DNA of 64,000 bases from an uncultured Verrucomicrobia subdivision 3 bacterium (GTDB lineage Bacteria > Verrucomicrobiota > Verrucomicrobiia > Limisphaerales > UBA11358), in the NCBI GenBank assembly GCA_903875465.1, contig CAIQWB010000073.1, positions 16,373-80,372 of the forward strand, given 5' to 3'. Made by a program: the position numbers and the translations under genes. Positions 5,781 to 47,143 of the stretch are shown here, in pieces (the first letter of the stretch is position 1; each line of letters opens with the position of its first letter). A model generated the notes under the pieces. It did no database searches. It was given only the letters and a program-made list of their open reading frames with translations, and was not told the DNA's origin.

Positions 5781-8700
5781 TCATGGTTGCTGGTAGGCCC
5801 GGTAGAAGCGGGCCGGTCCGGCCGGATCATTGAGCTGGTCCAGCAAATAAAGCGGGGAAGCGGTGGCCGCATTGGTACTCACGGACGACCAATTCACGAG
5901 GTCGGGGCTGGTTTGCAAGACATAGCTTTTGCCGAGGACCCCGACGATTTGCACGGCAAACCCGCCGTTGGTATACAGGCACGCACCGGTAAAGACCACC
6001 GGCGGTTGAATCGTAAACACGCGGCTGACGGCAATGCTGTTGGTGTAACCGGTTGCGAAGGCATTGACACTGACGGTGGCACTGTTGGTCAGGATGAACG
6101 GACCGGCATAGGCAAAGGAAGCCGGTGTGGGCAGGGAACCATCCAAGGTGTAATAGAGGGTGGCATTGGTATCCGGCGGTTGCAAGGCAACCTGGATCGC
6201 ATTGACGAAGCTGGCCCCGGCGGGATTGATGGCGGGCGGTGGCAGCGCCGGGATGCCCGGGAGACTGTTAATCCACGCGGCCATGACCGCCATGCCATTG
6301 GTATCCACCAGATAATGACCCAGGGGCGGCATCTTCACCCCGCGGACCAAGCTGCTGGCACGTTGATAAAGCATGGAGCGCCAAATGTCCTGGGGTTTGA
6401 TCACATAGGCATTGTCGACCCCCAAATTGGCGACCACCGGACCGTAGATCAGGTTTTGGCTGGTCAGCGGCGTGTCATAACGCGCATCGAAACTGCGCCC
6501 CGACCCGCCGGGCATATGGCAATAGGCGCAATTGACATCCACGTAAGAGCGCGCCCGATTTTCCAGCGTGGCATTTTGATTGGTAAGCGCCACCATCTGG
6601 GAAAAATTCGTGATGGCAGCCTCATCAAAGGCCGGATTGAAAAGTCCCAAATGGTTCAAGGCCCGCAATTGGTTGTCCGCCACGCCGGTGCCGGGATAAT
6701 CAAAATTCCCGTTGAGTTGGCGCGTGTTGACCCCCAGCACATAACCCGCCGCCGCAGTATGGCAGGACAGGCAGTTGGCCGGGCTGGGATAAAACCAGGT
6801 TTGTGTCTGGGTGCCGGTGCTGGTGGTGATGAGGATGTTCTCATTCAAGCTATTGGTCAGCAGGTCGGCATCACTGTTGTCCGGCCGCCATTTATAGGTG
6901 GCCCCAAAAACGGCCCCATAATTATCCCGCACGAGCAGGCGGGTCTCCAGCCGGCGCAACGGCGCATTCGACTGGGTTTGGTCGGTGACGAGGGAGAAAT
7001 GTTTGACAAAAACCGAGCCGGCGGGAAATGACCAGGCGCCATTGGTGGTAAAGCCAATTTGCTGGTCCGGGGTGGCCAGGCCACCGTTCCAGGGCACGGC
7101 CAGCCAGCGGCTTTTGATGGCGTTGTCCGACCAGAACGGCGCATTGGGCGCGTAAGGCAGCAGGCCGCGGGCGGGCACCAGATTGGTGGTGTCACTGAAA
7201 ACACCCACCTGGGACAAGGTGAGCGGGAGGCGGCCACTCCCGGAGGCGGACAGGTTAAAGGCGGGGGCAACCACAGCGCGATTGGTCAGGCCATAAGCGG
7301 CGGTGCTGCCCGCTTTGATGGTAATATTCACCGGGGCGGAGGTGCCGGTCAGGCCACTGCCATCGGTGGCCACCGCAGTGAGAGCCAGACTGCCCGGAGC
7401 CAGGCCGCTGATGGTCAGGGCATAGGGGGCATTGCTGACCGCGCCGACATACACGCCATTGGTGTAAAACGACACTTGATCGAGACGATTGTATTGCGCC
7501 GCGGCATTGGCCGTGAGGGTGAGGCTGGAACCGGCGGTGGTGGCGGTGCCATTGAGCGGGGCGGTCAGCACAGCGACCGGCGGCGGATTGGTATAGGGAT
7601 AAAGCTGGCTGGTAGGCACCAGGGAAAGGGGCTGCGAAGGACTGAACCATTGCAACTTGGCCACCGCACCATACAAACCTTGGAAGTAGTCCATCTCAAT
7701 AGTGTAGAGTTGCCCGGCTTTCATGGGGAAGGCGGCCTGATAGGTGGTGACTGGCTCGCCCACCCATTCATTGATCAGTTCCTGGCCATTTACAAACAGG
7801 CGCACACCGTCGTCCACGGTGGTAAAGAACGTGTAAGTCTCGTTGAACTGGGGCTGGATTGAACCCGTCCATATGGTGGTAAAGATTTCCGGGCCAATGT
7901 TCGTCGCCGGGCCGGTCGAGCTCCAGTCAAAATTAATGGTGGGATCCACCCGCACGAGGGTGGGCGCGTTGGTAAAGGTCCCGGCCTGGCCGGCATAGTA
8001 GGCACCGGTCAAGCCGGTGCCGGAGCCAACGGTGGTGCTGCTAATAAAGGGGGTCACCACCACACTGCTGCTCACCGCTCCCGGGAGGGTGGCAATCACT
8101 TGCAAGCCCGTGGTGTTGGTCAGCACGAGGGGACCGGTATAGAGGATGGCGTTCGTACCCGGGGTGGTGCCATCCAAGGTATAATAAATCGCCGCTCCGG
8201 CCACGGCATCCGCCAGGGTCACGACGACCGAATTGGTGAAGTTGCCGGCGGCCGGCGAGACGGTGGGGGTGGGTAAAAAAGCCCCCACGCCAAAGACGTC
8301 GAGGGTAAAATCACCGCCCACATAAACCTTGCCCCCGGCCACCGTGGGCGCGACCCACTTGACCGCCGGGCCGGGAACGTCGCGTTTCGGGGCCTGGCCA
8401 CTATTATAAAGTTCGGCCAGGTTGGTGGCATTATAAGCGTGCAATATCGCCGTGCCGCCGCTGGGCCAGCCATCGGTTTGCACGACCCAGACAATGGCAT
8501 TGCTGGTGCCGTTGGCCGAGACACCGGGCACGCCGCCCGGCGGCCCAAAGGTGGTGCTGGACACGGCCACCGGAGCGGGGCTGAGGGTGGCGTTCGTGAG
8601 GGCAAAGGCCCGCATGACGTCACTGGAGGCTTGATAATAGAGCGTGTTATTAAAATAGGCGGGCACCGGATAACTTGGCGGGATGCCCATCGCATTGGGC

Positions 8701-11700
8701 AGCTCGGCCACGATCTGGCTGTCCTGCGCACTGTTGTAATGCCCCAGATGGTCGCGGTCCACCAGGTAGATGGTTCCGTCCTTCCCGGCGCCCACCAAGA
8801 GGTGCGGGTGCGCGACACTGCCGGCGGCATCCGGCAGGCCCATGGGGCAGCCGGCCGCCAGGTCCAGATCCACGGCGGTCAGCGCGGCCTGGTTGTAAGG
8901 GGTAAAGTAATCGGTGAGCACCAGCCCGCTGCCGGGGTTGAATTTCAGAAAGCTTTCGCTCAAGTTGGCTTGCGTCAGCACTGAATAATTAGTGTTAAAG
9001 TCACCATTTCCCGTCATGAGAAAGACGGCGCCGGAAGCATCCCCCACCAACCCACCGCTCCCCTGCCAGATGCCACCGAAGCTGCCGTTGGGTGTGGTGT
9101 TATAAAGGCCCGTTTGCTGGAGGGTGTGGGCATCATAAGCCATGACCCAGCCGTGGTAATTGCCGGCGTCGCAATGGGAGGAAAACGCAAAATAAACCTG
9201 GCCATTTTGCAACAGCAGGGCCGTGCGGCATTGTTCCAAATTGCCATCGAAGACAATATTGGTGCCATCCCCGCCGATCCCCGTGCCAGGCACCGAGCCT
9301 TGAATCACCACCGGGCTGTTGGTTTGTTCGGCCCCGGTCAGCAGGTTGAGGGCATGCAATCTTTGGACGTCATGCTCCACACCATTGGTGGTTTCGGCCG
9401 TGACCGCCTCCACATAGATGGTGCCGCCGGCCAGATCAATCACCGGCGTGGCGGCAATGCACTCCTCGTACGGAATGTCCCCGCAATAGCCCACGGCCAG
9501 GTTGGGGGTGACGCCGGCGGCCGGATTAATGAAGCTGGTCTGCCACAAAGGCACGGCATTCGCCCCCTGGTTGTTATCGGCATCAAATGCGTAAACAGTG
9601 CCATGCTGCGTGGCCACGAACAGGGCGTTATGCACACCGCGGCCCGGGAAGTCGAGGCCGGATACGTAAAGTGGCTGCGCGTACACCGCGCCATCCACCG
9701 AACGGGTAAAGAGTTTGCCAAAAGAAGTGGCATTCACATTGCCCGGGGTCAGCACAAACTCATTGGTATTCGCTCCGGTGCGCAGGTTGTCATGCTGCCC
9801 GACCAGCACGTTATAACCCCGGTCGGCGGGAACGGGCAGCACGGTGAGTTGGGCGGGGGCGCTGACATTGGTCCCCAGGCGGTTGAAGGCGAGCAGGGTG
9901 TAAATTCCCGTCTGGTTGGTTTGCAGGTTCGGCAGAATCAACCAGTTCAAATTTTGGCCGGGCAAATTGGTGCCATTGCACTGCCATTGCAGGGTGATGG
10001 GCGTGGTGCCCGCCACGGTGGCCGTGAAGGTCGCCAGGCCGTTTTCATAGTTCGTCACGGGTGATGGTTGTTGGGTAAAGTAGAGGGAACCGGGCACAAT
10101 CGCGGACACCGTCACGGCGGGACTGGTAACGGTGGCAGCCGAATTGCTCACTTGCACGGAATAATCCCCGGAATCGGCAACGGCCAGATTGGTCAACACC
10201 AGGGTGGCCGTGTTACCCCACGGCAGATTGGTGCCGTTTCGCAGCCATTGGTAGCTAAAGGGCGGCGTGCCGGTTTCCGGGACACTCAGGGAAACGGTCG
10301 TCCCGGCCGCCACCACATTGGCGGGTGCGGCCACCGGCTGGACCGTGCCAGGGGGGGCGGACCAGTTGCCCGTTTGGTATAGCGCAATTTCTGCCGGGGA
10401 CAACGCCCGGCTGGCAATCAGCAGATTCGCCAGCCACCCGTTAAAATTCACGTCAGCGGTGGTTTTGCCCACGATAAAATTGGCGGGTTGCACATTCGGC
10501 GGGGGGGAGGCCTGGCTGCCGACGCTCACACCATCGACATACATCGTTTGAAGGGTGCCATCCCAGGTGACCGCAAGCGCATGCCACTGGCCATCCTTCG
10601 GGTCATTCGTCCCGGTGCCGGAAATGAAATCGTTGGCATACCAGTAGTTTTCCAAACTAAAATGCCCGTTGAGGCGGAAACTATTCGCCTGGCTGGCGCT
10701 GTTAAAACCCCAGCCCACAATGCCGCCGTTATTGGGGCAACCCGAGGCCGTCTTCGCCCACACCGCCACGGTATAGGGAGCGGCATTGGTCGGCACCCCG
10801 TTCGGGAACAAGCCGGACAGGGTGGTGAGTGTGCAATTGCCATCGAGATAAACCGAGCCACCGAAGGGTCCATCCGGACTGTAAACCGGCTGCCCGCTGG
10901 CCGCCGTGAGGGGATTAAACAGGCTGCCCCGGTCAACTCCCAGGTTAGTGGGATTATTAAACGGCCAATAGCCAGCGGTGATCATGCCGGGATTCACGGT
11001 CACTTTTAGCGTGGGGCTGGTATTAGTACCCAGTAAATTACCGACTTGGACGGCATAGCCACCGGCATCGCTGATCAAAACATTGGTCAGGAGCAGCGTC
11101 GCGGTCGTGGCCCCGGTTAGGTTGGTGCCGTTTTTTTGCCATTGGTATTGGAAGGGCGGAGTCCCTGTTACTGGCACCGATAAGGTAAGGGTGGTTCCCG
11201 CAGGCACTGGATTGGTGGCGGTGGCGAGAGGCGTCCCAGGAATCGCCGGCACCTGCCAGTTGCCGGCCTGATAAGCGGCCACTTCGGAGGGGGTCATGGC
11301 CCGGTTAACAATCAGTAAATCCGCCAGCCAGCCCGTGAAATTGACATCTGCCGTGGTTTGCCCCACGACGAAATTGGCCGGCTGGACGTTGGGGGGCGAG
11401 GTCGTCTGGCTCGCAGCCTTTAGACCGTCTTCATAAAAGGTTTGCGTGAGGCCATCCCACGTGACCACCAGGGCATGCCATTTGCCGTCGCTGGGGTCAT
11501 TCGTCAGTCCCGATATGATGAAATCATTGCCATACCAGTAATTCACCACGCTATTAGGGCCGTTCAACCGGAAGTTGTTTGCCTGACCATAACTATTAAG
11601 TCCCCAACCGACGAAACCGCCATTGGCAGCCCCTTTCGGGTCGGCTTTCTCCCAGACCGCGATGGTGTACGGACTGGCATTGGTGGGCAGGCAGGCCGGG

Positions 11701-12077
11701 AAGCTGCCCGCCAAGGTCGTGAGGGTGGTCTGGCCGTCCAGATACACGGAAGCTCCGAAGGGGCCATCGTTGGTAAATTGCAGGGTGCCGTGCAGGGGAG
11801 CGAGCGAGTGGCCCCAGGGACTGCTGTCCCAGCCGGGATTGGCGGCATTATTGAACTGCCAGTAGCCCACGATGCCCGTGCCTTGCGCCTCCAGGGAAGG
11901 GACCCCAAACAGGGCGCTGGCCAGCACGACTAACCCCAAGCCCAAGGAATTGGCCCGCCTGGCGGCGGTGAGTTGGCTGGCTACCTGGGCGTGGCTGACC
12001 CTGCCTGAAAGGCGATCAAGAGTCTGGCCGGTTAATAGCGACCAGCGCTTAAAATCCCTAATAATCTTGCAACTCAT
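5781..12077 (-). CDS. giant secreted multidomain protein: 2x(LamG-Ig), Ig, PQQ-like beta-propeller, chitobiase-C-like, PA14, Ig-like, diheme cytochrome c-like module, chitobiase-C-like, conserved C-terminal FYR tail
   Basis: Uninterrupted 2098-aa ORF with a hydrophobic signal-like segment (LGLGLVVLASALFGVPSLEAQ). The domain motifs are listed in the sub-features below. Confidence 0.85.
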   Translation of the reverse strand: MSCKIIRDFKRWSLLTGQTLDRLSGRVSHAQVASQLTAARRANSLGLGLVVLASALFGVPSLEAQGTGIVGYWQFNNAANPGWDSSPWGHSLAPLHGTLQFTNDGPFGASVYLDGQTTLTTLAGSFPACLPTNASPYTIAVWEKADPKGAANGGFVGWGLNSYGQANNFRLNGPNSVVNYWYGNDFIISGLTNDPSDGKWHALVVTWDGLTQTFYEDGLKAASQTTSPPNVQPANFVVGQTTADVNFTGWLADLLIVNRAMTPSEVAAYQAGNWQVPAIPGTPLATATNPVPAGTTLTLSVPVTGTPPFQYQWQKNGTNLTGATTATLLLTNVLISDAGGYAVQVGNLLGTNTSPTLKVTVNPGMITAGYWPFNNPTNLGVDRGSLFNPLTAASGQPVYSPDGPFGGSVYLDGNCTLTTLSGLFPNGVPTNAAPYTVAVWAKTASGCPNNGGIVGWGFNSASQANSFRLNGHFSLENYWYANDFISGTGTNDPKDGQWHALAVTWDGTLQTMYVDGVSVGSQASPPPNVQPANFIVGKTTADVNFNGWLANLLIASRALSPAEIALYQTGNWSAPPGTVQPVAAPANVVAAGTTVSLSVPETGTPPFSYQWLRNGTNLPWGNTATLVLTNLAVADSGDYSVQVSNSAATVTSPAVTVSAIVPGSLYFTQQPSPVTNYENGLATFTATVAGTTPITLQWQCNGTNLPGQNLNWLILPNLQTNQTGIYTLLAFNRLGTNVSAPAQLTVLPVPADRGYNVLVGQHDNLRTGANTNEFVLTPGNVNATSFGKLFTRSVDGAVYAQPLYVSGLDFPGRGVHNALFVATQHGTVYAFDADNNQGANAVPLWQTSFINPAAGVTPNLAVGYCGDIPYEECIAATPVIDLAGGTIYVEAVTAETTNGVEHDVQRLHALNLLTGAEQTNSPVVIQGSVPGTGIGGDGTNIVFDGNLEQCRTALLLQNGQVYFAFSSHCDAGNYHGWVMAYDAHTLQQTGLYNTTPNGSFGGIWQGSGGLVGDASGAVFLMTGNGDFNTNYSVLTQANLSESFLKFNPGSGLVLTDYFTPYNQAALTAVDLDLAAGCPMGLPDAAGSVAHPHLLVGAGKDGTIYLVDRDHLGHYNSAQDSQIVAELPNAMGIPPSYPVPAYFNNTLYYQASSDVMRAFALTNATLSPAPVAVSSTTFGPPGGVPGVSANGTSNAIVWVVQTDGWPSGGTAILHAYNATNLAELYNSGQAPKRDVPGPAVKWVAPTVAGGKVYVGGDFTLDVFGVGAFLPTPTVSPAAGNFTNSVVVTLADAVAGAAIYYTLDGTTPGTNAILYTGPLVLTNTTGLQVIATLPGAVSSSVVVTPFISSTTVGSGTGLTGAYYAGQAGTFTNAPTLVRVDPTINFDWSSTGPATNIGPEIFTTIWTGSIQPQFNETYTFFTTVDDGVRLFVNGQELINEWVGEPVTTYQAAFPMKAGQLYTIEMDYFQGLYGAVAKLQWFSPSQPLSLVPTSQLYPYTNPPPVAVLTAPLNGTATTAGSSLTLTANAAAQYNRLDQVSFYTNGVYVGAVSNAPYALTISGLAPGSLALTAVATDGSGLTGTSAPVNITIKAGSTAAYGLTNRAVVAPAFNLSASGSGRLPLTLSQVGVFSDTTNLVPARGLLPYAPNAPFWSDNAIKSRWLAVPWNGGLATPDQQIGFTTNGAWSFPAGSVFVKHFSLVTDQTQSNAPLRRLETRLLVRDNYGAVFGATYKWRPDNSDADLLTNSLNENILITTSTGTQTQTWFYPSPANCLSCHTAAAGYVLGVNTRQLNGNFDYPGTGVADNQLRALNHLGLFNPAFDEAAITNFSQMVALTNQNATLENRARSYVDVNCAYCHMPGGSGRSFDARYDTPLTSQNLIYGPVVANLGVDNAYVIKPQDIWRSMLYQRASSLVRGVKMPPLGHYLVDTNGMAVMAAWINSLPGIPALPPPAINPAGASFVNAIQVALQPPDTNATLYYTLDGSLPTPASFAYAGPFILTNSATVSVNAFATGYTNSIAVSRVFTIQPPVVFTGACLYTNGGFAVQIVGVLGKSYVLQTSPDLVNWSSVSTNAATASPLYLLDQLNDPAGPARFYRAYQQP
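6258..7235 (-). other. diheme c-type cytochrome-like module (two CXXCH) of the giant protein (aa ~1615-1940)
   Basis: CLSCH is encoded at 6759-6773 and CAYCH at 6516-6530; I verified the codons on the minus strand. The flanking pattern LLPYAPNAPFWSDNAIKSRW...RRLETRLLV...YKWRPDNSDADLL...NQLRALNHLGLF...RARSYVDVNCAYCH...KMPPLG...AWINSL resembles, from memory, the SO_2930/HNE_0200-type diheme cytochrome family. Confidence 0.6.
7608..8015 (-). other. PA14 domain of the giant protein (aa ~1355-1490)
   Basis: GLTGAYYAG...FTNAPTLVRVDPTINFDW...FTTIWTGSIQPQFNETYTFFTTVDDGVRLFVNGQELINEW matches the canonical PA14 pattern (GL.g.YY...F...........W.G.i.p...G.Y.F....DDg.rl.v.g..vi..W). Confidence 0.65.
8283..9815 (-). 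other. PQQ-like repeat beta-propeller region of the giant protein (aa ~755-1265)
   Basis: Repeated blade motifs of the PQQ/BamB-like type: GAVYAQPLYV, GTVYAFDADNNQGANAVPLWQ, LHALNLLTGAEQ, GWVMAYDAHTLQQTG, GTIYLVDRDHLG, ILHAYNATNLAELY, GGKVYVGG. Confidence 0.5.
10098..11870 (-). repeat. tandem intragenic duplication of a LamG(concanavalin-like)-Ig unit (aa 70-364 and 369-660 of the giant protein)
   Basis: The two units align by eye over about 290 aa, with roughly half or more of positions identical. Examples: GPFGASVYLDGQTTLTTLAGSFP..PTNASPYTIAVW vs GPFGGSVYLDGNCTLTTLSGLFP..PTNAAPYTVAVW; PPNVQPANFVVGQTTADVNFTGWLADLLI vs PPNVQPANFIVGKTTADVNFNGWLANLLI; GTPPFQYQWQKNGTNL vs GTPPFSYQWLRNGTNL. Confidence 0.75.
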
Positions 12078-18372: not shown

Positions 18373-19173
18373 ATGCCCTCTGACGTTCTCACCATGTATC
18401 AATTGCCGCTGCCGCCAGCGGTGGAGATATTGTGCTGCCATTACGCGGTCTTGCGCACTTGGGATTACCCCGATCTCGCCGCGCCCTATTGGCGGTGGTA
18501 TTGGGTGGACCGGCCGGGAGCGGCCATTACGGTGGGTCAAAAACGTTTTGAATTAATTCCCGGACAGGTGGTCCTCATTCCGCCCAACACCCATTTTGCG
18601 GCCCACAACCGCGAACCCATTGGTTTTCTTTATATTCATTTCTTTGTGGAGGCCGCTTATGAACAATCCTCCCCGGCTCCCAGCTTTTTGGAGTTGGACG
18701 CCACGCAAAGGCAGTTCATCCGGGATTTTGCCAGCCAACTGGCCGAATTGGAAAGGAAGGAGGCGTCGCCGCTGCTCTCCCTGCCGCTGGCGTTCGTCAG
18801 CCTGGCGCTGAGCCGAACGAAACAGGAACACTGGACAGGTGCCTGTCAGGATGCGCGCGTTTCGCGGGCCATCCAGCAGATTGAAGCCGGCTATCCCGCC
18901 GCCCTGTCGAACGCCCAACTCGCCCGGTCTGCCGGGATGAATTTGAACGCTTTCATCCGGAGGTTCAAACGGGTGACGAGCCAGACGCCCCGGCAATTTT
19001 TGCTCGGCTTGCGCCTGAAGGAGGCGTCCTCACTGCTGCATCACAGCCAGCTGAGCCTGGAGACGATCGCCGAGCAAACGGGTTTCAATGACCGGCAGCA
19101 CCTGAACTTGATGTTCCGCAAAAGTTTTCGCATCACCCCGGCCCAGTTTCGCAAAAACTTCTTAAAACTGTGA
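18373..19173 (+). CDS. AraC family transcriptional regulator
   Basis: C-terminal double HTH: LSNAQLARSAGMNLNAFIRRFKRVTSQTPRQFLLGLRLKEASSLLHHSQLSLETIAEQTGFNDRQHLNLMFRKSFRITPAQFR. It sits immediately upstream of the sugar-acid operon. Confidence 0.85.
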   Translation: MPSDVLTMYQLPLPPAVEILCCHYAVLRTWDYPDLAAPYWRWYWVDRPGAAITVGQKRFELIPGQVVLIPPNTHFAAHNREPIGFLYIHFFVEAAYEQSSPAPSFLELDATQRQFIRDFASQLAELERKEASPLLSLPLAFVSLALSRTKQEHWTGACQDARVSRAIQQIEAGYPAALSNAQLARSAGMNLNAFIRRFKRVTSQTPRQFLLGLRLKEASSLLHHSQLSLETIAEQTGFNDRQHLNLMFRKSFRITPAQFRKNFLKL

Positions 19174-19340: not shown

Positions 19341-20414
19341 ATGAATTTCGACCCGGCCCAACTCTGCCAGCGTTGGGGGCTGCCTGCCCGTCCCCGGCCG
19401 ATCGTCATTATTGGCGCGGGCGATATTGTGCGGGATGCACACCTGCCTGCCTACCAAAAGGCGGGCTTCCCCGTCGCCGGGGTGTTTGATTTGCGCAGCG
19501 AGGTGGCGGCGGCCCGCCAGCGGGAATTCAACGTGTCCCGGGTTTGCGCAACCATGGCAGAAGCCGTGGCCATACCGGAGGCCATCTTCGATGTGGCCGC
19601 CCCGCCGTCGGCGCACGAGGCCATCCTTGAGCAACTTCCCGACGGCGCGGCCGTGCTGCTCCAGAAACCCATGGGCAACTCGCTCGCCATGGCCCGGCGC
19701 ATTCAGGCGATTTGTGCGCGCAAGCGACTGCGGGCGGCGGTGAATTTTCAGTTCCGCTTTTGTCCGTTCATGCTGGCCATTGGCGAGTTGCGGCAACGCG
19801 GCGAACTCGGTGAACTGGTCGAGATCGAGGTGCGGCTCAATATTGCCACCCCGTGGGACACCTTTCCGTTTCTGCTGGCGGAGTCCCGGGTGGAAATTCA
19901 AGTTCACACGGTGCATTATCTGGACGCCATCCGCCAGTTACTCGGCAATCCTGCACGGGTGTATGCCCGCACCGTCAAGCATCCCCATTTTCCCCAGCTC
20001 GCGAGCACGCGTTCCAGCATTATCCTCGATTACGGCGACATGATCCGCTGCTGTCTCTCCATCAATCATTGCCATCCGTTTGGTGCGCGCCATGCGGCGG
20101 CCACGATTCGCGTGGAAGGCACGGCGGGGTGTGCCATGGCCTCCATCGGGTGCTTGATTGACTATCCGCGCGCCCTGCCCGACCAGCTCGAAATAGTTAC
20201 CCGTTCCCAGCCGGAATGGCGCGCGGTGGCCCTGCACGGCCAATGGTTTCCCGATGCCTTTATCGGCAGCATGTCCAACCTGCAACGCTTCGCGGCGGGC
20301 GAGGACGCTGCCCTGGTATCGCCCGTCAGCGACGCACTGCTAACCATGGGGCTCGTGGAGGCCTGTTACACAGCCGACCAGCACGGCGGCATACCGCTGG
20401 AATCACCCGCATGA
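19341..20414 (+). CDS. Gfo/Idh/MocA family NAD(P)-dependent oxidoreductase (candidate sugar 1-dehydrogenase)
   Basis: N-terminal Rossmann motif IVIIGAGDIVRDAHLPAY. Size is 357 aa. It is the first gene of the operon. Confidence 0.7.
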   Translation: MNFDPAQLCQRWGLPARPRPIVIIGAGDIVRDAHLPAYQKAGFPVAGVFDLRSEVAAARQREFNVSRVCATMAEAVAIPEAIFDVAAPPSAHEAILEQLPDGAAVLLQKPMGNSLAMARRIQAICARKRLRAAVNFQFRFCPFMLAIGELRQRGELGELVEIEVRLNIATPWDTFPFLLAESRVEIQVHTVHYLDAIRQLLGNPARVYARTVKHPHFPQLASTRSSIILDYGDMIRCCLSINHCHPFGARHAAATIRVEGTAGCAMASIGCLIDYPRALPDQLEIVTRSQPEWRAVALHGQWFPDAFIGSMSNLQRFAAGEDAALVSPVSDALLTMGLVEACYTADQHGGIPLESPA

Positions 20415-20477
20415 GCCCCCGCGCAAAAGGCATTGATCCCGCAGCGGCGTACCCGCAATATCCATGAATCCAAGTTT

Positions 20478-20798
20478 ATGAACGATCCCAGATTACTGAA
20501 GCTGGACCCAGCCGACAATGTGCTGGTCGCGATTCAAACCCTCGAAGCGGGCGACACCGTGACGGTGGCGGGCCAGCCGGTGCCAGTGTCCCTGCGCCTC
20601 ACCCTTGGTCACAAACTCGCGGCAAGGTCCATTCGTGCGGGTGAAAAGATTATCAAGTACCGGGTCCCGATTGGCTCGGCCACCCGGGACATCGCCGCGG
20701 GCGAGCATGTGCATGTGCATAACCTGAAAAGCGATTATCTGCCGACTTACACGCACGACCGCAGCCATACTTATTCCCCGCGCCATGATCATCACTGA
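20478..20798 (+). CDS. UxaA-family dehydratase, small N-terminal (SAF-domain) subunit
   Basis: LKLDPADNVLVAIQTLEAGD...GHKLAARSIRAGEKIIKYRVPIGSATRDIAAGEHVHVHNL is the SAF/altronate-dehydratase N-terminal pattern. The start is at ATG 20478. Confidence 0.75.
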   Translation: MNDPRLLKLDPADNVLVAIQTLEAGDTVTVAGQPVPVSLRLTLGHKLAARSIRAGEKIIKYRVPIGSATRDIAAGEHVHVHNLKSDYLPTYTHDRSHTYSPRHDHH

Positions 20799-21987
20799 GC
20801 AAGCCTTCCTGCGCGCCGATGGCCGCAAAGGCATCCGCAATCATATCGTCGTTGCCTATCTGGTGGAATGCGCCCATCACGTGGCGCGCGAGATCGTTTA
20901 TCCGTACCGTGAACAGGGGGTGCACCTCATTGGCTTCGGGGGCTGCTACCCGAACGATTATGCCGCGCGCATGATGCGCGTGCTGTGTACTCATCCCAAT
21001 GTGGGAGGCGTCATCCTCCTGTCGCTTGGTTGTGAAAGTTTCAACCGTGGGTTGCTCCGCGAGGCGGTGGCCGCCTCCGGCCGTCCCGTGGAAACCCTGG
21101 TCATCCAGCAAAATGGCGGGACGCGCAAAACGATTGCGCAGGGCCGGCACCTGCTGGAAACCATGCGGGCCGAGGTTGCGCGCGTGCCGCGCGCGCCCCT
21201 GCGGCTGGATGAATTCATCGTGGGCACGGTCTGCGGGGGCAGCGACGCCACCAGCGGCATCACGGCCAATCCCGGCATTGGCCGCGCGTTTGACCGGCTG
21301 GTCGAACAAAATGCCGGCTGCATCTTCGAGGAAACCGGGGAGTTGATTGGTTGCGAGGACATCATGACCGCCCGCGCCGCCACGCCGGAGCTGGGGGGGA
21401 TTTTGCGCGAGTCCGTGAACAAGGCCGCGCGTTATTATACCGTGCTGGGCCACGGCAGTTTCGCGCCCGGCAATGCCGAGGGTGGGCTCACCACCCTGGA
21501 GGAAAAAAGCATGGGGGCTTATGCCAAGAGCGGGGCCTCGCGCATTTCCGGTCTGCTTAAACCCGGGGACATTCCCCCGCGTGGCGGTTTGTATCTGCTG
21601 GATGTCGTGCCCGATGGCGAGGTGCGCTTCGGCTTTCCGAACATCAACGACAATGCCGAGATCGCCGAGCTGATCGCCTGCGGCTCGCACGTCATCCTGT
21701 TTTCCACCGGGCGCGGCTCGGTGGTGGGCTCGGCGATTTCGCCGGTCATCAAGGTTTGCGCCAATCCGGAAACGTTTCGGCGCATGAGCGAGGACATGGA
21801 TGTGGATGCCGGCCGCATTCTCGAAGGGCGCGCGTCGCTCGATGAGGTGGGCCAGGAAATTCTGGAGCTGGCACTGGCAGTGGGCCGGGGGGCACCGACC
21901 AAATCTGAGGCGCTGGGCCATCAGGAATTTGTGCTGACCTACAAATCGTTTGAACCGATCGGTCCGTCCTGCCTGCCTGGTGTTTAA
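20785..21987 (+). CDS. UxaA-family (altronate/galactarate dehydratase-like) sugar-acid dehydratase, large subunit
   Basis: MIITEQAFLRADGRKGIRNHIVV..., LSLGCESFN, and the GTVCGGSDATSGITANP motif typical of the UxaA C-terminal domain. It overlaps the small subunit by 14 nt. Confidence 0.8.
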   Translation: MIITEQAFLRADGRKGIRNHIVVAYLVECAHHVAREIVYPYREQGVHLIGFGGCYPNDYAARMMRVLCTHPNVGGVILLSLGCESFNRGLLREAVAASGRPVETLVIQQNGGTRKTIAQGRHLLETMRAEVARVPRAPLRLDEFIVGTVCGGSDATSGITANPGIGRAFDRLVEQNAGCIFEETGELIGCEDIMTARAATPELGGILRESVNKAARYYTVLGHGSFAPGNAEGGLTTLEEKSMGAYAKSGASRISGLLKPGDIPPRGGLYLLDVVPDGEVRFGFPNINDNAEIAELIACGSHVILFSTGRGSVVGSAISPVIKVCANPETFRRMSEDMDVDAGRILEGRASLDEVGQEILELALAVGRGAPTKSEALGHQEFVLTYKSFEPIGPSCLPGV

Positions 21988-21988
21988 T

Positions 21989-22849
21989 ATGAGTTTACCC
22001 AGGCCAATGGTTGATGCACACGTCCATTTTTGGGATCCGCAACGGCTGGATTATCCCTGGCTGGCGGAAGTGCCGGCGTTACAGCGGGCGTTTTTGCCGG
22101 CGGACTATGCCCGGGCCAACCAGAACGCAACGGCCCAGGTGGCCAAAATGATTTTTGTCGAGTGCGGTTGTGCCGCGGCGCACACCCTGGAAGAAGTGCA
22201 GTGGGTCAGCGAGTTGGCGGCGCGCGAACCCCGGCTGCAAGGCATTGTGGCCCAGGCAGCGGTGGAACTGGGCCAGCGCGTAAAGGACGGGCTGGCGGAG
22301 CTGGCCCGGCAGCCATTGGTCAAGGGTGTGCGGCGCAATTTGCAGGGCGAGACGGACCCGGATTTTTGCCGGCGGCCGGATTTTGTCGCCGGCGTGCGGG
22401 CCCTGGCAGCGCACCGGTTCACCTTCGATCTGTGCATTATCCACCCGCAGTTGCCGGCGGTCACTGAGCTGGTGCGGCAGTGTCCGGAAGTGCAATTTAT
22501 TCTGGATCATTGTGGCAAGCCAGCCATTCGCGACGGCCAGCGGGAGCCCTGGCGGCAGCATTTGCGGGAACTGGCCAGCCTGCCCAATGTGGCCTGTAAA
22601 ATTTCCGGCCTGGTCACGGAAGCCAGTCCGGCCAGGTGCGGCGCGGCGGATTTGGAACCCTGGGTGGCCCACGCCGTGGAGGCGTTTGGGCTGGAGCGCG
22701 TTCTGTTTGGTGGAGACTGGCCGGTTTGCCAGCTCGCGACCCCCTTGGCCGACTGGATGGCATCCCTGCAAACTATTCTCAGCGGTGTGGCGGAAGCCAG
22801 CCTGGTCAAAGTATTTCAAACCAATGCGGAAAGGATCTATCATGTTTAA
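21989..22849 (+). CDS. amidohydrolase-2 family lactonase (L-fucono-1,5-lactonase-like)
   Basis: MSLPRPMVDAHVHFWDPQRLDYPWL (HxH metal site), and C-terminal FGGDWPV. The start is 2 nt after the uxaA-like stop. Confidence 0.7.
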   Translation: MSLPRPMVDAHVHFWDPQRLDYPWLAEVPALQRAFLPADYARANQNATAQVAKMIFVECGCAAAHTLEEVQWVSELAAREPRLQGIVAQAAVELGQRVKDGLAELARQPLVKGVRRNLQGETDPDFCRRPDFVAGVRALAAHRFTFDLCIIHPQLPAVTELVRQCPEVQFILDHCGKPAIRDGQREPWRQHLRELASLPNVACKISGLVTEASPARCGAADLEPWVAHAVEAFGLERVLFGGDWPVCQLATPLADWMASLQTILSGVAEASLVKVFQTNAERIYHV

Positions 22850-23582
22850 TTTGTCAGGTAAAACGGCGCTCGTGACGGGCGGGGCCTCGGGGATCGGGGC
22901 GGCGCTGGCCAACCGGTTTGCCAGCTCCGGGGCGAACGTGTGGGTCGCGGACCGGGACGAGGTCAACGGCCCGGCGATGGCCGCTAAACTAGGCGGCACG
23001 TTTGTAAAGTTGGACGTCGCCAGCGAGGCTGATTGCGCCGCTTTGGCGCAAACAATCGGTGCGGTGGATGTGCTGGCGAATGTGGCGGGCATCGGGCATG
23101 TGGGCTCGCTCCTGAACACCACGGCGGCGGACCTGGACAAGTTGTTCGCGGTGAACGTGCGCGGGATATTCAACTGCTGCAAGGCCTTCGTTCCGGGCAT
23201 GCTGGAGCGCCGGTCGGGCAGTGTGATCAACATGGCTTCGATTGCCGGCGTGATTGCCGTGCGGGACCGCCTGGCTTACACGACCACCAAATTCGCCGTG
23301 GTGGGCCTGACCAAGGCGCTGGCCCTGGATCATTCCCACACGGGTGTCCGCTTTAATTGCATTTGCCCCGGCCGGGTGGAAACCCCGTTTGTACTCGCCC
23401 GGTTAAAGGAATATCCCGACCCGGAAAAAGCGTATCGCGACATGGCGTCCACCCAGTTGAACGGACGCATGCTGGCCCCGGAGGAAGTTGCGGCCGCGGC
23501 CTTGTATCTGGCGGCGGAGGAGAGCGCCATGGTCACCGGCAGTGCCATGATGCTGGATGGGGGCTGGAGTGCGGGGAAATAA
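22842..23582 (+). CDS. short-chain dehydrogenase/reductase (candidate 2-keto-3-deoxy-L-fuconate or L-fucose dehydrogenase)
   Basis: The true start is ATG 22842 (MFNLSGKTALVTGGASGIGAA), overlapping the preceding stop by 8 nt. The catalytic YTTTKFAV (YxxxK) motif is present. Confidence 0.8.
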   Translation: MFNLSGKTALVTGGASGIGAALANRFASSGANVWVADRDEVNGPAMAAKLGGTFVKLDVASEADCAALAQTIGAVDVLANVAGIGHVGSLLNTTAADLDKLFAVNVRGIFNCCKAFVPGMLERRSGSVINMASIAGVIAVRDRLAYTTTKFAVVGLTKALALDHSHTGVRFNCICPGRVETPFVLARLKEYPDPEKAYRDMASTQLNGRMLAPEEVAAAALYLAAEESAMVTGSAMMLDGGWSAGK

Positions 23583-23588
23583 TTTAAT

Positions 23589-24395
23589 ATGAAAATCATT
23601 CGTTACCAGGACACCTCGGGAAAAATCGGGCTGGCGGCATTGCAAGCCGATGGCACCGCTATGAAATTGGCGGGCGATATTTATGCATCGCCGCAGCTCA
23701 CGGCGGAGCCCGCCACCGTGGCTCAATTACTGGCCCCCGTGGTGCCGGGGAGCATTATCTGCATCGGGCTGAATTACCGCCGGCACGCCGAGGAAACTGG
23801 GGCGAAATTCCCCGAATATCCCGTGGTTTTTTTCAAGGGGGTCAACACCTTGCTGGACCCGGGCGTGGCGATTCAAATTCCCCGGCACCTGCCCAGCGAC
23901 GAGGTGGATTACGAATGCGAACTGGCGGTCGTGATCGGCCGGCGCTGCAAGAATGTGAGCCGGGCGGAAGCCCTCGATTACGTCCTGGGTTACACCTGCT
24001 GCAATGATGTCAGCGCGCGGGACTGGCAAATCCGGCGCAGTGGCGGCCAGTGGTGCCGCGGCAAAAGCTTTGACACCTTCAGTCCGTTGGGGCCATGCCT
24101 GGTCACCGCCGACGAGATTCCCCAGCCCAACGCGCTCCGTCTGCGGACGGTCCTGAATGGGCAGGTAATGCAGGACTGGAACACGAACGACATGATTTTT
24201 GACATTCCCGCACTCATCGAGTTCCTGAGCGGCAGCAGCACCCTGCTGCCGGGAACCGTGATTCTCACGGGCACCCCCCACGGCGTGGGCATGGCGCAGA
24301 AACCGCCACGCTGGCTGCAGCCGGGGGACTCGGTGAGTATTGAAATCGAAAAAATTGGCACGCTCACCAATCCGGTGGCCGGCGAGAACATTTGA
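23589..24395 (+). CDS. fumarylacetoacetate hydrolase (FAH) family protein (2,4-diketo-3-deoxy-L-fuconate hydrolase-like)
   Basis: CIGLNYRRHAEE, DYECELAVVIG and GTPHGVG motifs. Size is 268 aa. Confidence 0.75.
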   Translation: MKIIRYQDTSGKIGLAALQADGTAMKLAGDIYASPQLTAEPATVAQLLAPVVPGSIICIGLNYRRHAEETGAKFPEYPVVFFKGVNTLLDPGVAIQIPRHLPSDEVDYECELAVVIGRRCKNVSRAEALDYVLGYTCCNDVSARDWQIRRSGGQWCRGKSFDTFSPLGPCLVTADEIPQPNALRLRTVLNGQVMQDWNTNDMIFDIPALIEFLSGSSTLLPGTVILTGTPHGVGMAQKPPRWLQPGDSVSIEIEKIGTLTNPVAGENI

Positions 24396-24438
24396 ACGGG
24401 CCCGTCCCGGTCCGGCCGAAAACCAATAAACACCTGAT

Positions 24439-25116
24439 ATGACTGAATCCCAAAGCGAATGGCAAAATGATGCGGAACTGTTCCGCCTGATCCAATCGGT
24501 ATTATACACCCCGGTCGTCGGCGACATCCTGGACGCCCTGGGCTGCTACCACCAATTCCTGCCGCAGCCGGTGCAGCCGGCCCTCACCACGATGAAACTG
24601 GCCGGGCGGGCGATGCCGGTGGTGATGATTGACGTTTATGGGCCGCAAAAAAAGCCCTTCGGCCTGCTCACCGAAGCGCTGGATCAATTACAGCCCGGCG
24701 AGGTTTACATCGCTTCGGGCGGTGACATGCGGAGCGCGTACTGGGGCGAACTGCTCACCGCGACCGCCCGCATGCGGGGGGCGGCCGGGGCGGTGGTGAA
24801 TGGTTTCCACCGCGACACCCCGCAGATGCTGGCGCAAAACTGGCCGGTGTTCAGCCGTGGCCGGTTCGCCCAGGATTCCAGTGTGCGCACCCAGGTGGTG
24901 GATTTTCGCTGCCCGCTGGAAGTGGGCGGGGTGTGGGTGGAGCCGGGTGACCTCATCTTTGGCGACCTGGACGGAGTGGCGGTGGTGCCGCGCCGGCACG
25001 AACGGGAAGTCATCAGCCGGGCCCTGGAAAAAGCGCGGGGGGAAAAGCGCGTGCGCCAGGATATTGAGGCGGGCATGTCCAGCACCGACGCTTTTAAAAA
25101 ATACGGCATTTTATAA
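24439..25116 (+). CDS. RraA-family protein (class II aldolase / oxaloacetate decarboxylase-like fold)
   Basis: [10 protein letters not shown] and [24 protein letters not shown] match the RraA/HMG-aldolase pattern. Confidence 0.65.
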
Positions 25117-25120
25117 AATT

Positions 25121-25900
25121 ATGAACCCTGCAAACACCGGGTTTCCCGGAAGCTTTTCCCTGGCGGGCGAACATGCCTTGATCACTGGCGGCGGCACCGG
25201 ACTCGGGCTGGCCATGGCCCAGTGCTTTGTGGCCGCTGGTGCGCGCGTAACCATCGTGGGCCGGCGGCCCGAACCCCTGCACGCGGCGTGCGCGGCGCTG
25301 GGTGCCAGCGCCGCGTACCTGGCGGCGGACATCACGGACCCAGTACGCCTGGCCGAGCTCGTGCCCGCGGCCGAGGTGAAACAAGGCCCCCTGACCATTC
25401 TGGTCAACAACGCCGGCGTGCATTTAAAAAAACCGGCGGTGGTGACCACCGATGCAGAATTCCAGACGGTGCTCCAGACGCATCTTTTTGCCGCGTTCTC
25501 GCTGAGCCGCGAAGCGGCCAGGGGAATGTTGCAGCGCGGGCATGGCAGCATTCTGTTTACCGCCTCAATGGCGTCGTTTATTGGCATTCCCCAAGTGGTT
25601 GCGTATTCGGCGGCCAAATCGGCTTACCTGGGTGTCGTCCGCGCGCTGGCCTCCGAATGGTCAGGCCAGGGCGTGCGGGTGAACGCGATCGCGCCGGGTT
25701 GGATTCAATCCGAGATGCTGGAAAAAGCCCTCGCGGGCGATCCGGCGCGCCGGGCCAAAATCCTCAGCCGCACCCCCATGAACCGCATTGGCGAGCCCCA
25801 GGACATCGGCTGGGCGGCGGTTTACCTCTGTTCCCCGGCGGCCCAGTTTGTCACCGGCGTGATCCTGCCGGTCGATGGTGGCGCGAACACCGGATTTTAA
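25121..25900 (+). CDS. short-chain dehydrogenase/reductase (gluconate-5-dehydrogenase-like)
   Basis: Start is at ATG 25121 ([31 protein letters not shown]). YSAAKSAY is the catalytic motif. The 24800 start lies in the RraA gene's shadow. Confidence 0.8.
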
Positions 25901-25931
25901 CGATTACCCTTGGCTCGTGAAAACTTTTTTG

Positions 25932-26936
25932 ATGAACCAGCCGGGCGTGTTCAGCTTCGGGGAAGCGGCCCGGCCGGAGCCGCGGCCGGGCGAGGTGTTG
26001 CTCCAGATTGAACGCGTGGGGCTGTGTGGCTCGGATTTGAGCGCGTTCCGGGGCTTGAATCCCATGCAGATTTATCCGCGCATTCTCGGCCATGAAATTG
26101 CCGCGACCATTGTTGAAGTCACCCCGGATGTGCCGGAGGCCTGGCAGCCGGGGCGCCTGGTCACCGTGGTGCCCTACACGGCGTGTGGCGCGTGTGCCGC
26201 CTGCCGCGCCCAGCGTTCGAATGCCTGCCAGCACAATCAAACCCTGGGGGTGCAACGTGACGGCGCGTTCACGGAGTTCCTGGCGGTTCCCTGGCAAAAA
26301 TTGCTGCATTCCCCCCGGCTGACGGCGGCGGATTACGCACTGGTCGAGCCCTTGTCGGTGGGCTTTCACGGGGTGGAACGGGGCCGCGTAAGCGCCGCTG
26401 ACACCGTGGCCGTTTTTGGCGCGGGCATGATTGGCCTGGGGGCCATCGCGGGCGCGGCCCTCCACAAAAAAGCGCGGGTGATCGCGATTGACCTGGACGA
26501 CCAAAAACTCGCGCTGGCCCGCCGGGCGGGCGCGGCGGAAACCATTAATTCGGCAACGGAAAACCTGCACGACCGGTTGCGGCAATTGACCGGCGGCGAC
26601 GGACCGGCGGTGGTGATCGAAGCGGTGGGCACGGATGAGACTTATGTGGCCGCGATCAACGAGGTGAGTTTTGCCGGGCGGGTGGTTTATATCGGTTATG
26701 CCAAAAAGCCGGTGACTTATGAGACAAAGTTTTTTGTGATGAAGGAACTCGACATCATCGGCGCACGGAACGCGCTGCCGCGGGATTTTGAAAACGTTGT
26801 GAGCGTCCTCGAGTCCGGACGGTATCCGGTCGCGGAGACGGTTACCCGGGTGGTGCCCTTTGAACAGACGGGCGCGGCCCTCGCAGGGTGGTCCGCCCAA
26901 CCGTCCACCATCACGAAAATTCATGTTGATTTTTAG
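25932..26936 (+). CDS. zinc-dependent medium-chain alcohol/polyol dehydrogenase
   Basis: [15 protein letters not shown], the structural-zinc cluster [15 protein letters not shown], and Rossmann motif [10 protein letters not shown]. The start at ATG 25932 is preferred. Confidence 0.8.
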
Positions 26937-26994
26937 GCCGCGGCGGTTCGCGGGCACTGGCAATTAACCTGTCCAGCAAACTTGTGGCGATATT

Positions 26995-28356
26995 ATGACC
27001 GGCAAATTATTCACGACCCCGGATGGAAAAAACCGCGCGCGGACATTTGCGCTGGTCTGCACGCTTTTCCTGCTCTCGGCCCTGTGCAACAGCATGATCG
27101 ATGTGCTGAACAAACATTTTCAAAATTCGCTGGGCGTCTCCAAGGCCCACTCCACGTTTGTGCAGGCGGTCTGGTATGGGGCCTACTTTTTGATGGCGCT
27201 GCCCGCCGGCTGGATTGCGCGGAGATTTGGTTATCGCGCGGGCATTCTCACCGGCCTGGTGACGGTGATTGCCGGGTCGCTGCTGTTCATCCCGGTTACC
27301 AGCCTGCATGCTTCCCCAGCGGTGGTGTTTGCGGCGTTTCTGGGCGCGCTGTTTGTGGTGGGGGCCGGGCTGACGTTTCTGGAGGCGATTGCCAATCCGT
27401 ATTCGACCGTGCTGGGGCCGCCGGAATCGGGCGTGGCGCGCATCAACCTGGGCCAGAGCTGCAATGCCGTTGGCTGGATTCTCGGCCCCCTGCTGGCCGG
27501 CAGCTTCCTCCTTTCCAAAACCGGCGTGGCCAACACCAGCAACGCCGCGCTGTACCTGCCTTATCTCTTCGTGGCCGGGATTGTGGCGGTGCTGGTGCTG
27601 GTTTTCAGCATCGGACCGGTTCCGGAAATCCACGCGCCGGCCGAACCCAAACCCGCGGCAGGCAGCGCCCGGGCGGAACGTCCCCTGTGGCAGGAACGGC
27701 ATTTCCTGCTGGCGATCGTTTCCCAATTTCTTTATTGCGCCGCCCAGACCGGCATTTTTAGCTTTTTTGTGAATTATTTAAAAGATGACCGCTGCGTGCC
27801 GGCGCTGCCCTTGTGGGCGGCAAATATTCTGCCCGCGGCGATGAAATTCTCCCCGGCCCCCGACGCCTGGCGGATCACCGAATATGGCGCCGGGGTGTTT
27901 CTTTCGGTGGCCTTTGGTTTTTTCACGGTCGGCCGCTTTTCGGGCAGCGCCATCACCCGATATTGCCCGCCCCACCTGACGTTGGGGGTTTATGCGGTCA
28001 TCAACTCCGTCATGATGATCCTGGTGATGCTGCCGCTGGGCTGGGGGTCGGTGGCCGCGCTGTTTCTGAGTTTCTTTTTCATGTCCATCATGTACCCCAC
28101 CCATTTCGCTTTGGGCATTCACGGGCTTGGCGAGAAAACCAAGCTGGCTGCGTCCTGGATGGTGACGGCCGTGGTGGGTGGGGCAATTCTGCCGTATTTC
28201 ATGGGCTTGCTTGCGGATCACTATTCCCTGCGCGCCGGGTTCATCATGCCGCTGCTCTGTTTTGTGTTCATTGCCTGTTACGGATTTGGCTGGCGGAAAT
28301 GGTACCGTCATGAACGGGGACCGGAACACCCATCCGTCCCCGGCCCCGCTCACTAA
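26995..28356 (+). CDS. fucP: L-fucose:H+ symporter-type MFS permease
   Basis: 453 aa, 12-TM profile. The N-terminus FALVCTLFLLSALCNSMIDVLNKHFQNSLGVSKAHSTFVQAVWYGAYFLMALPAG is characteristic of the FucP/FHS family. Confidence 0.75.
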   Translation: MTGKLFTTPDGKNRARTFALVCTLFLLSALCNSMIDVLNKHFQNSLGVSKAHSTFVQAVWYGAYFLMALPAGWIARRFGYRAGILTGLVTVIAGSLLFIPVTSLHASPAVVFAAFLGALFVVGAGLTFLEAIANPYSTVLGPPESGVARINLGQSCNAVGWILGPLLAGSFLLSKTGVANTSNAALYLPYLFVAGIVAVLVLVFSIGPVPEIHAPAEPKPAAGSARAERPLWQERHFLLAIVSQFLYCAAQTGIFSFFVNYLKDDRCVPALPLWAANILPAAMKFSPAPDAWRITEYGAGVFLSVAFGFFTVGRFSGSAITRYCPPHLTLGVYAVINSVMMILVMLPLGWGSVAALFLSFFFMSIMYPTHFALGIHGLGEKTKLAASWMVTAVVGGAILPYFMGLLADHYSLRAGFIMPLLCFVFIACYGFGWRKWYRHERGPEHPSVPGPAH

Positions 28357-28373
28357 AACATTATTGCTATACT

Positions 28374-46992: not shown

Positions 46993-47055
46993 CTAGTTGA
47001 TTGGTATCGCAGGGCGCGGGGCTGCGCCAGACGGGGCACCCCAACTTCAGAATGG

Positions 47056-47093: not shown

Positions 47094-47143
47094 TTGACCC
47101 AACCCCAAACATGGGCGCATTCCCACACCAGCGCCACCCGTGA

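Follow-up and report, generated by a model that had tools for sequence, protein, structure and literature searches.

Why should three otherwise unrelated, very large secreted proteins encoded in one stretch of a verrucomicrobial genome end on the same pattern of residues, and what might such a shared end do? The stretch, hereafter the window, comprises 64,000 nucleotides of contig CAIQWB010000073.1 (positions 16,373–80,372 of the forward strand; assembly GCA_903875465.1) from an uncultured soil/freshwater bacterium of Verrucomicrobia subdivision 3. An earlier note on this DNA had pointed to a common C-terminal module in three genes and suggested a sorting or anchoring signal. The three tails are all encoded on the minus strand, and each reads directly into a stop codon; the coordinate ranges first given for them are correct, and a plus-strand reading was rejected because its translation is unrelated to the quoted peptides. 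In all three genes the stop comes 4–5 residues past an [FY][FY]R motif. A six-frame scan of the window found only three open reading frames (ORFs) of several hundred residues that combine [FY][FY]R at ≤6 residues from the stop with the upstream pattern, and these are the three tails. The few remaining ORFs with [FY][FY]R near the stop are 100–431 aa long and lack the upstream pattern; one is a real aminotransferase gene (59190–60428).

Gene 1 (5781–12077, minus strand) encodes 2098 aa, in which Pfam and NCBIfam scans of the translation place two LamG, three Ig, PA14, Big_7, two CHB_HEX_C and an SO2930-family diheme cytochrome c domain ahead of tail 1 (5784–6020, minus strand), an FN3-like C-terminal module delimited by independent hidden Markov models (HMMs), AlphaFold2 and Foldseek. 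Its C-terminus reads ...GKSYVLQTSPDLVNWSSV...ARFYRAYQQP and, more fully, ...GKSYVLQTSPDLVNWSSVSTNAATASPLYLLDQLNDPAGPARFYRAYQQP up to the stop, and defines the tail-1 type, ...Y.LQ.S.DL..W...RFYR....P. A putative Sec signal peptide, RRANSLGLGLVVLASALFGVPSLEA followed by QG (11886–11966, minus strand), was read from the translation with the heuristic used for the signal-peptide survey described below, the true start codon being uncertain. The cytochrome domain spans residues 1618–1939 and scores 214 bits, under the family cut-off. Fused with LamG, Ig, PA14, Big_7 and chitobiase-C domains in an exported protein, it gives gene 1 an unusual redox-plus-lectin architecture.

Gene 2 (47144–52576, minus strand) encodes a beta-helix protein of ~1800 aa built from autotransporter-associated beta-strand (PATR) repeats, as seen in the translation and in Pfam and NCBIfam scans, and ends in tail 2 (47147–47407, minus strand; 70-residue core 47147–47356), an FN3-like module defined by HMM, AlphaFold2 and Foldseek. 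The C-terminus reads ...HQGWILQSQTNNLGAGLSNNWVDV...AVFFRLRSP, in the fuller reading ...HQGWILQSQTNNLGAGLSNNWVDVAGSGSSTQAIVNINPASPAVFFRLRSP up to the stop, and the tail-2-type pattern is LTL.WPADH.GW.LQSQTN.L..GL..NWVDV.GS...VFFRLRSP. A putative signal peptide read from the translation, MIPQLKYPSLCSLLSLTLLAAAAPGRLQA followed by AN, starts at an internal ATG (52463–52549, minus strand). Over 7.2 kb around gene 2 (46817–54004), the window is 90.3% identical in DNA to contig L001, from a metagenome-assembled genome (MAG) of Verrucomicrobia subdivision 3. Only the 3' part of gene 3 (62999–64000, minus strand; 333 codons) is visible in the translation, the 5' end lying beyond the window edge; this part contains no Pfam or NCBIfam domain. 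It ends in tail 3 (63002–63202, minus strand), matched by both tail-1- and tail-2-type HMMs and of intermediate type (L.WPA..G.QY.VQ.TT.L...FQTVAT...FYRV...P), with the C-terminus ...YQYAVQATTSLPGNFQTV...AAFYRVQLVP, or ...YQYAVQATTSLPGNFQTVATITATNTLAHWALSPTNGAAFYRVQLVP up to the stop. Just upstream, residues 199–252 of gene 3 (63247–63405, minus strand) give a weak second match to the tail-1-type profile (domain E 0.027) and may form a further degenerate Ig/FN3-like domain. The module measures ~67–87 residues, so that the tails as first quoted, at about 50 residues, were too short.

The tails share only 20–33% pairwise identity and were therefore tested with profiles free of window sequence. 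With all three tails as the profile, a search retrieved 22 metagenomic proteins, mostly tail-2 relatives together with three relatives of tail 3 (P0013, P0014 and P0021). An HMM built from tail-2 relatives alone, without window sequences, matches tail 3 over its full length with E = 1.7e-3 among 874 window ORFs; tail-2-type HMMs iterated on related genomes, likewise without window sequences, match tail 2 with E ~1e-34 (ORF residues 1728–1814) and reach tail 3 with E 9e-6 to 1.5e-4. The tail-2 family HMM does not extend to tail 1, and a word-indexed search with tail 1 alone returned no matches. Using phmmer on 80 related loci (L001–L080, chosen for carrying tail 2), tail-1 relatives were found at the ends of 750–2265-aa ORFs with the pattern ...G.DY.LQ.STNL..W...RFYRV..GP before the stop. 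Two tail-1-type HMMs without window sequences, one from the related loci and one from 120 metagenomic proteins, were run against 668 window ORFs. They match tail 1 with E 1.7e-10 and 3e-10 (residues 2041–2115 and 2044–2117 of the stop-to-stop ORF) and tail 3 with E 4.5e-7 and 2e-5 (from residue 267 or 278 to 330 of 333), and no other of the 668 ORFs falls below E ~0.7. A comparison of the tail-1-type and tail-2-type family alignments by hhalign gives a probability of 97.0% (E 1.2e-10).

On this profile evidence the three tails are homologous members of one family, with tail 3 intermediate, because profiles without window sequence recover the tails and hhalign joins the two families. The initial observation that three large secreted proteins share a C-terminal pattern is therefore borne out. 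A chance or compositional resemblance of three unrelated C-termini could draw on the low pairwise identity and on the failure of tails 1 and 2 to hit each other's family HMMs directly. Against it, independent profiles recover all three tails and nothing else in the window, hhalign links the families, the models of tails 1 and 2 described below have the same fold, and thousands of relatives share the C-terminal position; chance resemblance is refuted by these profile, hhalign, fold and position tests and is hardly worth entertaining. Among paralogs, the tails are 51% identical compared with 26% for the adjacent 72-residue segments, a figure given little weight because the set was chosen by tail similarity.

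To which fold do the tails belong? Started from tail 1 alone, an iterated search of the ORFs in the window and the 80 related loci gathers 111 of the 112 ORFs found by the tail-2-type profile, tail 3, and a set of internal repeats with the pattern ...SLSWTA..GATGYNVKRST..GG.YT.I...YTD......TYYYVVSAVN..GES..S.EVSA. These repeats are bona fide fn3 domains (Pfam PF00041; E 6e-29 in L005 and 2e-52 in P0142), and hhalign relates the tail families to them with probabilities of 97.6% (E 4e-12) and 96.0% (E 4e-9). The FN3 profile has 100 columns, and the tail alignment reaches only to column 84, just past the YYYVV motif of strand F and ahead of the G-strand segment. AlphaFold2 predicts the same truncation. 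The model of tail 2 (pLDDT 86.6) shows strands A, B, C, C', E and F, and that of tail 1 (pLDDT 83.9) likewise has six; in both the chain ends after the last strand. In a Foldseek search of the PDB, the top 50 matches to tail 2 are essentially all FN3 domains (Tencon, integrin beta4 FNIII, sDscam FNIII), with probabilities of 0.72–1.0 (best ~1.0) and TM ~0.55, at E values of only ~0.02. The best matches to tail 1 (E ~0.05) are FN3/Ig-like domains of the RsgI4 sensor, a cytokine receptor and glycosidases.

The tails are very probably a divergent, six-stranded family of FN3-type C-terminal domains that lack strand G. They show superfamily-level homology to bona fide fn3 domains and similarity to solved FN3 structures, and share with PF00041 the B-strand Trp, the C-strand aromatic, the C' Trp and the F-strand aromatic pair. 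In place of the seven-stranded A-B-E/C'-C-F-G sandwich, six strands are predicted, without G. The tails differ further in features of their own (a TNL turn, the Arg of FYR and the xxxP end) and in position, nearly always closing the protein where fn3 is mostly found internally or in tandem. They stay below the PF00041 gathering score, and Pfam and NCBIfam searches with the three tails come back empty even at E ≤ 10. The Pfam fn3 model finds only the canonical domain adjoining the tail in P0194 and P0105, and the tandem tail-type modules of P0024 escape it. Because the PF00041 model fails and the seventh strand is absent, we file the module as a variant outside Pfam fn3. The beta-sandwich character suggested in the earlier note agrees with the six-strand models of tails 1 and 2. 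The sequence skeleton it described is real, but much of it (aromatic-x-[LV]Q, W..V, A-x-F-[YF]-R) proves to be the generic core pattern of FN3. Specific to the tails are conserved polar residues in WPADH.GW, in QTN/STNL and in the near-invariant Arg of FYR.

Donor-strand complementation, by which a partner would lend strand G in the manner of chaperone-usher pilins, was set aside given the confident stand-alone six-strand models, and it is also disfavoured by tandem arrays that have no spare strand between copies.

No solved structure in the PDB belongs to this sequence family: sequence profile searches there returned only insignificant matches (a glyoxalase, transthyretin and a CBM32-like glucanase; E 0.1–1). 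In turn, tblastn of a tail-1-type module against the PLSDB plasmids returned none. A look-up of cluster members gave names that reflect the cargo only, with no cultured organism among the members. The family is uncurated, as no Pfam or NCBIfam model covers it, and no description of the tail was found in the searchable literature, which is incomplete in coverage; the original remark that no mechanism had been described for it stands to that extent.

The family is nonetheless large. An exhaustive HMMER search of 1.84 billion cluster representatives (50% identity clusters) retrieved 3,433 proteins at E ≤ 1e-10. At E ≤ 1e-3 the number rises to 6,837, which is an upper bound, as proteins with several FN3 domains, P0142 for example, score too. 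A scan of one genome per species identified 192 tail-2 relatives. Nearly all come from MAGs that bear the label Verrucomicrobia subdivision 3, Limisphaerales or Verrucomicrobiia, with several paralogs to a genome. Some related loci carry ill-fitting MAG labels, namely Bifidobacterium/Bifidobacteriaceae (L005, L027, L028, L032, L040, L041 and L068), Sulfotelmatobacter (L049), Pseudomonadales (L066) and Methylacidimicrobium (L029/L061), which likely reflect mislabelling or mis-binning.

In nearly all members the module closes the protein. The copy ends ≤5 residues from the protein end in 147 of the 150 best representatives and in 116 of 120 metagenomic tail-1-type matches. In the related loci, 109 of 112 matches to a mixed-tail profile end ≤4 residues from the stop, as do 108 of 109 matches to a tail-2-type profile within ≤5 residues. 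With a broad profile the count is 136 of 163 at ≤5 residues, and of the 27 non-terminal matches ~20 are canonical, G-strand-bearing FN3 repeats and only ~4 are tail-like. The C-terminal bias is accordingly strong, most exceptions being ordinary internal FN3, while the strict rule originally put forward gives way to tandem and a few internal copies.

The last residues also follow a pattern. The FYR motif is followed by 3–5 residues in 110 of 133 unique tails, and 74% of tails close on Pro, versus 10.7% of other genes (Fisher p = 1e-43). Across the window and L001–L080, C-terminal Pro is mildly enriched in non-tail genes as well (10.7% of 428 gene proxies versus a Pro composition of 5.6%), and in the window it closes 5 of 31 genes, including those for GH95, GH29, rhamnosidase-like and GH43-like proteins. 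A lineage-wide habit of ending on Pro was considered and rejected, the enrichment in other genes being only mild next to that in tails. Internal copies also end on Pro, and the residue therefore marks a domain boundary and not a free-carboxyl signal, contrary to its initial description as part of an end signature.

Two loci show the module in unusual gene contexts. In L033 (1333–6099, plus strand), a tail-2-type module occupies residues 979–1050 of a 1589-aa ORF and is followed by a poly-Pro stretch and ~540 further residues; the arrangement hints at a fused gene or at the loss of a stop codon. In L081 (6024–10219, plus strand), the tail is a separate 72-aa gene (P0186) right after 902-aa and 263-aa ORFs on the same strand, and looks like part of a gene split by frameshifts. 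P0186 sits on a 446-kb contig, where the split gene has housekeeping neighbours and a protein with a weak PEP_exosort_dom match lies 7 kb downstream.

What kinds of protein carry the tail? Pfam scans of 45 + 10 tail-bearing proteins detect the catalytic domains GH16, GH28, GH43, GH59, GH2, arabinofuranosidase, SASA esterase and histidine phosphatase, alongside PATR, LamG, BNR, the carbohydrate-binding modules (CBMs) CBM6/35, F5/8, Ricin, PKD, Ig and bacterial TSP3 repeats. All are extracytoplasmic types, and a single subtype, that of tail 2, is attached to unrelated catalytic domains; the cargo is indeed of very different composition, as the earlier note had it, spanning glycoside hydrolases, CBMs, PATR and LamG. 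Signal peptides, scored with a crude home-made heuristic, occur in 77% of tail-bearing genes versus 42% of other gene proxies (p = 6e-12), in keeping with the expected enrichment among exported proteins. The window also encodes GH95, GH29 and rhamnosidase-like proteins with signal-peptide-like N-termini but without the tail, so the tail marks a subset of exported proteins and is not needed for Sec export. Calcium-binding thrombospondin type 3 (TSP3_bac) repeats, reading ...NYAEWIAGTNPTNAAS..., directly precede some tail-1-type modules (L006 15178–16122, minus strand; L008 15279–17981, minus strand; P0191, P0254, P0260, P0271 and P0283).

Tail-bearing ORFs are long, with a median of 1407 aa. 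Of the 194 gene proxies of ≥700 aa in the related loci, 120 have the tail and not one has PEP-CTERM. The eight PEP-CTERM-like ends in these loci all belong to proteins of 220–356 aa (L004, L014, L018, L020, L022, L034 and L052/L053); the lineage has a separate PEP-CTERM system, on small proteins in the sampled loci.

A sorting or anchoring function, deduced from position, abundance and cargo, is plausible. In Verrucomicrobia subdivision 3 (Limisphaerales/Pedosphaerales-type), the FN3-type tail closes a large share of the big, Sec-exported multidomain proteins, namely glycoside hydrolases, carbohydrate-binding proteins and adhesin-like PATR beta-helix proteins. Placed last on unrelated extracytoplasmic cargo, one module could give these proteins a common fate after Sec export, a reading to which we tentatively assign slightly less than an even chance; it draws on the fact that the module is added last to unrelated cargo, at the frequency seen here and with tail-specific conserved polar residues. 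The likeliest such fate is that, after Sec export, the tail would keep its cargo at the cell surface by binding non-covalently to a ligand or receptor of the envelope common to these proteins. Recognition for crossing the outer membrane would be the less likely alternative. Retention is favoured over a translocation signal because of the tandem arrays, the N-proximal copy in P0026 and the internal copies that end in ...FYRLxxxP. The gene 2 protein fits a common destination, as does the presence of a separate PEP-CTERM system on small proteins. As a rule, PATR-type passengers close with an autotransporter barrel or with PEP-CTERM (TIGR02601/TIGR04393), an ending that the JGI name of one cluster member echoes. 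Pfam and NCBIfam scans of the full gene 2 protein find neither, and the tail takes the position that they would occupy.

Several observations weigh against a common fate. Tail-type modules occur in tandem in the metagenomic proteins P0024 (6 copies), P0133 (3) and P0023 (2), P0026 has an N-proximal tail-type copy besides its terminal one, and the related loci contain ~4 internal tail-like copies; such tandem, internal and N-proximal copies are unlike a pure translocation signal and better fit a binding or structural module. The internal copies also end in ...FYRLxxxP, and the precise ending on Pro may reflect a domain boundary only. The density of tails (3 per 64 kb in the window, 53 unseeded in 1.26 Mb of related loci, or ~1 gene in 10–15) is, like paralog conservation, a biased figure that is probably inflated by paralog clustering and locus choice, and the signal-peptide heuristic has a high background. 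No secretion or processing genes are present among the window genes. Lastly, FN3-like domains are common spacers in extracellular enzymes.

The most serious competing explanation takes the tail for a plain FN3-like domain at the protein end that plays no part in targeting and serves as a structural cap, a spacer or a module binding a ligand or substrate such as a glycan. It would have spread by domain shuffling at 3' ends and by paralog expansion, and would stand last only because 3' additions are tolerated. We give this explanation a substantial chance, if one below even. The module is demonstrably related to FN3, its proteins and genomes also contain canonical FN3 repeats, and bacterial extracellular enzymes commonly carry FN3 and Ig-like domains. 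The tandem and internal copies with their own terminal Pro agree with it, as do the confident six-stranded AlphaFold folds predicted without a partner and the absence of a partner or machinery in the window. However, ordinary FN3 domains obey no such rule of position, whereas ~98% of the best 150 representatives carry the module last and the internal matches in the loci are nearly all canonical FN3 with a G strand. One subtype recurs on unrelated catalytic domains, in ~1 gene in 10–15 of the sampled regions by the biased count given above, and the conserved polar residues (WPADH.GW, QTN/STNL and the Arg of FYR) point to a shared interaction rather than a passive spacer.

The common-fate reading has a stronger form, in which the tail would be the recognition or attachment domain of an undescribed pathway that delivers or holds hundreds of large enzymes and adhesin-like proteins per genome at the cell surface of Verrucomicrobia subdivision 3. 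This is possible, but on balance doubtful. If true, the pathway would be a functional counterpart, in the Planctomycetes–Verrucomicrobia–Chlamydiae (PVC) lineage, of type IX secretion system (T9SS) C-terminal domains (CTDs) or of the dockerin system, with a dedicated receptor or translocon. Verrucomicrobia are major polysaccharide degraders in soil and fresh water, and the module offers a concrete and very abundant handle on how they might get their very large enzymes and beta-helix proteins through the outer membrane and then hold them on the cell surface; a tail HMM could flag the surface and extracellular proteome of the lineage. Should the tail prove no more than an FN3-like domain at the protein end, a curated model would still supply thousands of protein ends with the annotation they lack and put a six-stranded FN3 variant on record. 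The module is a testable lead on the display or export of large surface proteins, and not yet evidence for a new mechanism.

The other window genes include those for sugar-acid and fucose catabolism, 2-oxoglutarate dehydrogenase, Suf proteins, an ABC exporter, a histidine kinase and a DUF2126/ATP-grasp/transglutaminase cluster. This last cluster (39997–46992, plus strand) is conserved, sits immediately upstream of gene 2 and converges with it. Its DUF2126 protein (1153 aa) combines transglutaminase-N with a putative amidoligase, its ATP-grasp/Alpha-E protein (883 aa) is circularly permuted, and its third protein (297 aa) is transglutaminase-like. A 1149-aa ORF (36457–39906, plus strand) has no Pfam match and no signal-peptide-like N-terminus. 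A catabolic cluster for sugar acids and deoxy-sugars (19341–30170, plus strand), with an AraC regulator at 18373–19173, comprises a GFO/IDH/MocA oxidoreductase, an altronate/galactarate dehydratase-like protein, two short-chain dehydrogenases/reductases (SDRs), an FAA hydrolase, an RraA-like aldolase, a zinc alcohol dehydrogenase (Zn-ADH), a major facilitator superfamily (MFS) transporter and a GH29 fucosidase.

How does the tail compare with known C-terminal sorting and attachment systems? The earlier note had likened it to PEP-CTERM, LPXTG and T9SS CTD signals, and to all three it is unrelated in sequence and architecture, with no match to their models. PEP-CTERM/exosortase (TIGR02595) is similar in that it, too, tags the C-termini of proteins secreted in this phylum and provides an alternative ending for PATR-type proteins; the tails have no PEP motif, no hydrophobic helix or transmembrane segment, no basic (Arg/Lys) cluster and no TIGR02595 match. 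Direct reading of the three C-termini likewise reveals no LPXTG-like motif with a hydrophobic segment and basic tail, as sortase substrates would have. Gene 2 has no 12-stranded barrel (PF03797) of the autotransporter (type V secretion) kind, and its last 70–87 residues are the FN3-like tail.

Dockerin and S-layer homology (SLH) modules come closer in their mode of use. They are small, mostly C-terminal modules on unrelated glycoside hydrolases and hold proteins at the surface, and more than one copy is possible, which fits the rare tandem arrays. They differ in fold: dockerin is a calcium-binding pair of helical F-hands and SLH a helical bundle, whereas the tails are predicted to be all-beta. 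Pfam finds neither a duplicated F-hand (PF00404) nor any dockerin or SLH match in sequence.

The T9SS CTDs of type A (TIGR04183/PF18962) and type B (TIGR04131/PF13585), both described previously (bioRxiv 10.1101/2020.05.13.094771), resemble the tails in their Ig-like sandwich, similar size, extreme C-terminal position, diverse Sec-exported enzymes and adhesins, and several subtypes. None of these four models matches the tails at E ≤ 10 or the full proteins, no CTD structure is among the top 50 Foldseek matches of tails 1 and 2, and none of the T9SS components SprA/Sov, PorV, PorU or PorK/L/M/N is encoded among the genes of the window. By extension, the tail could be a true secretion signal for a dedicated, undescribed outer-membrane translocation or attachment pathway, recognised on the periplasmic side and possibly cleaved like T9SS CTDs. 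The gross features are those of a CTD, with a 70–90-residue Ig-like sandwich at the C-terminus of diverse Sec-exported proteins and several subtypes per genome, and PATR passengers occur without a barrel of their own. We nevertheless consider this explanation unlikely, since CTD models and structures fail to match, candidate machinery was not seen in the window, and the tails occur in tandem copies, which to our knowledge are not found for CTD signals. Moreover, T9SS is regarded as specific to the Fibrobacteres–Chlorobi–Bacteroidetes (FCB) superphylum (PMC12398890), and the host phylum of the tails lies outside it. Returning to surface retention as the favoured fate, the tail would resemble a T9SS CTD, a dockerin or an SLH module in function while being related to none of them, and among these the T9SS CTD might offer the best analogy for how it works.

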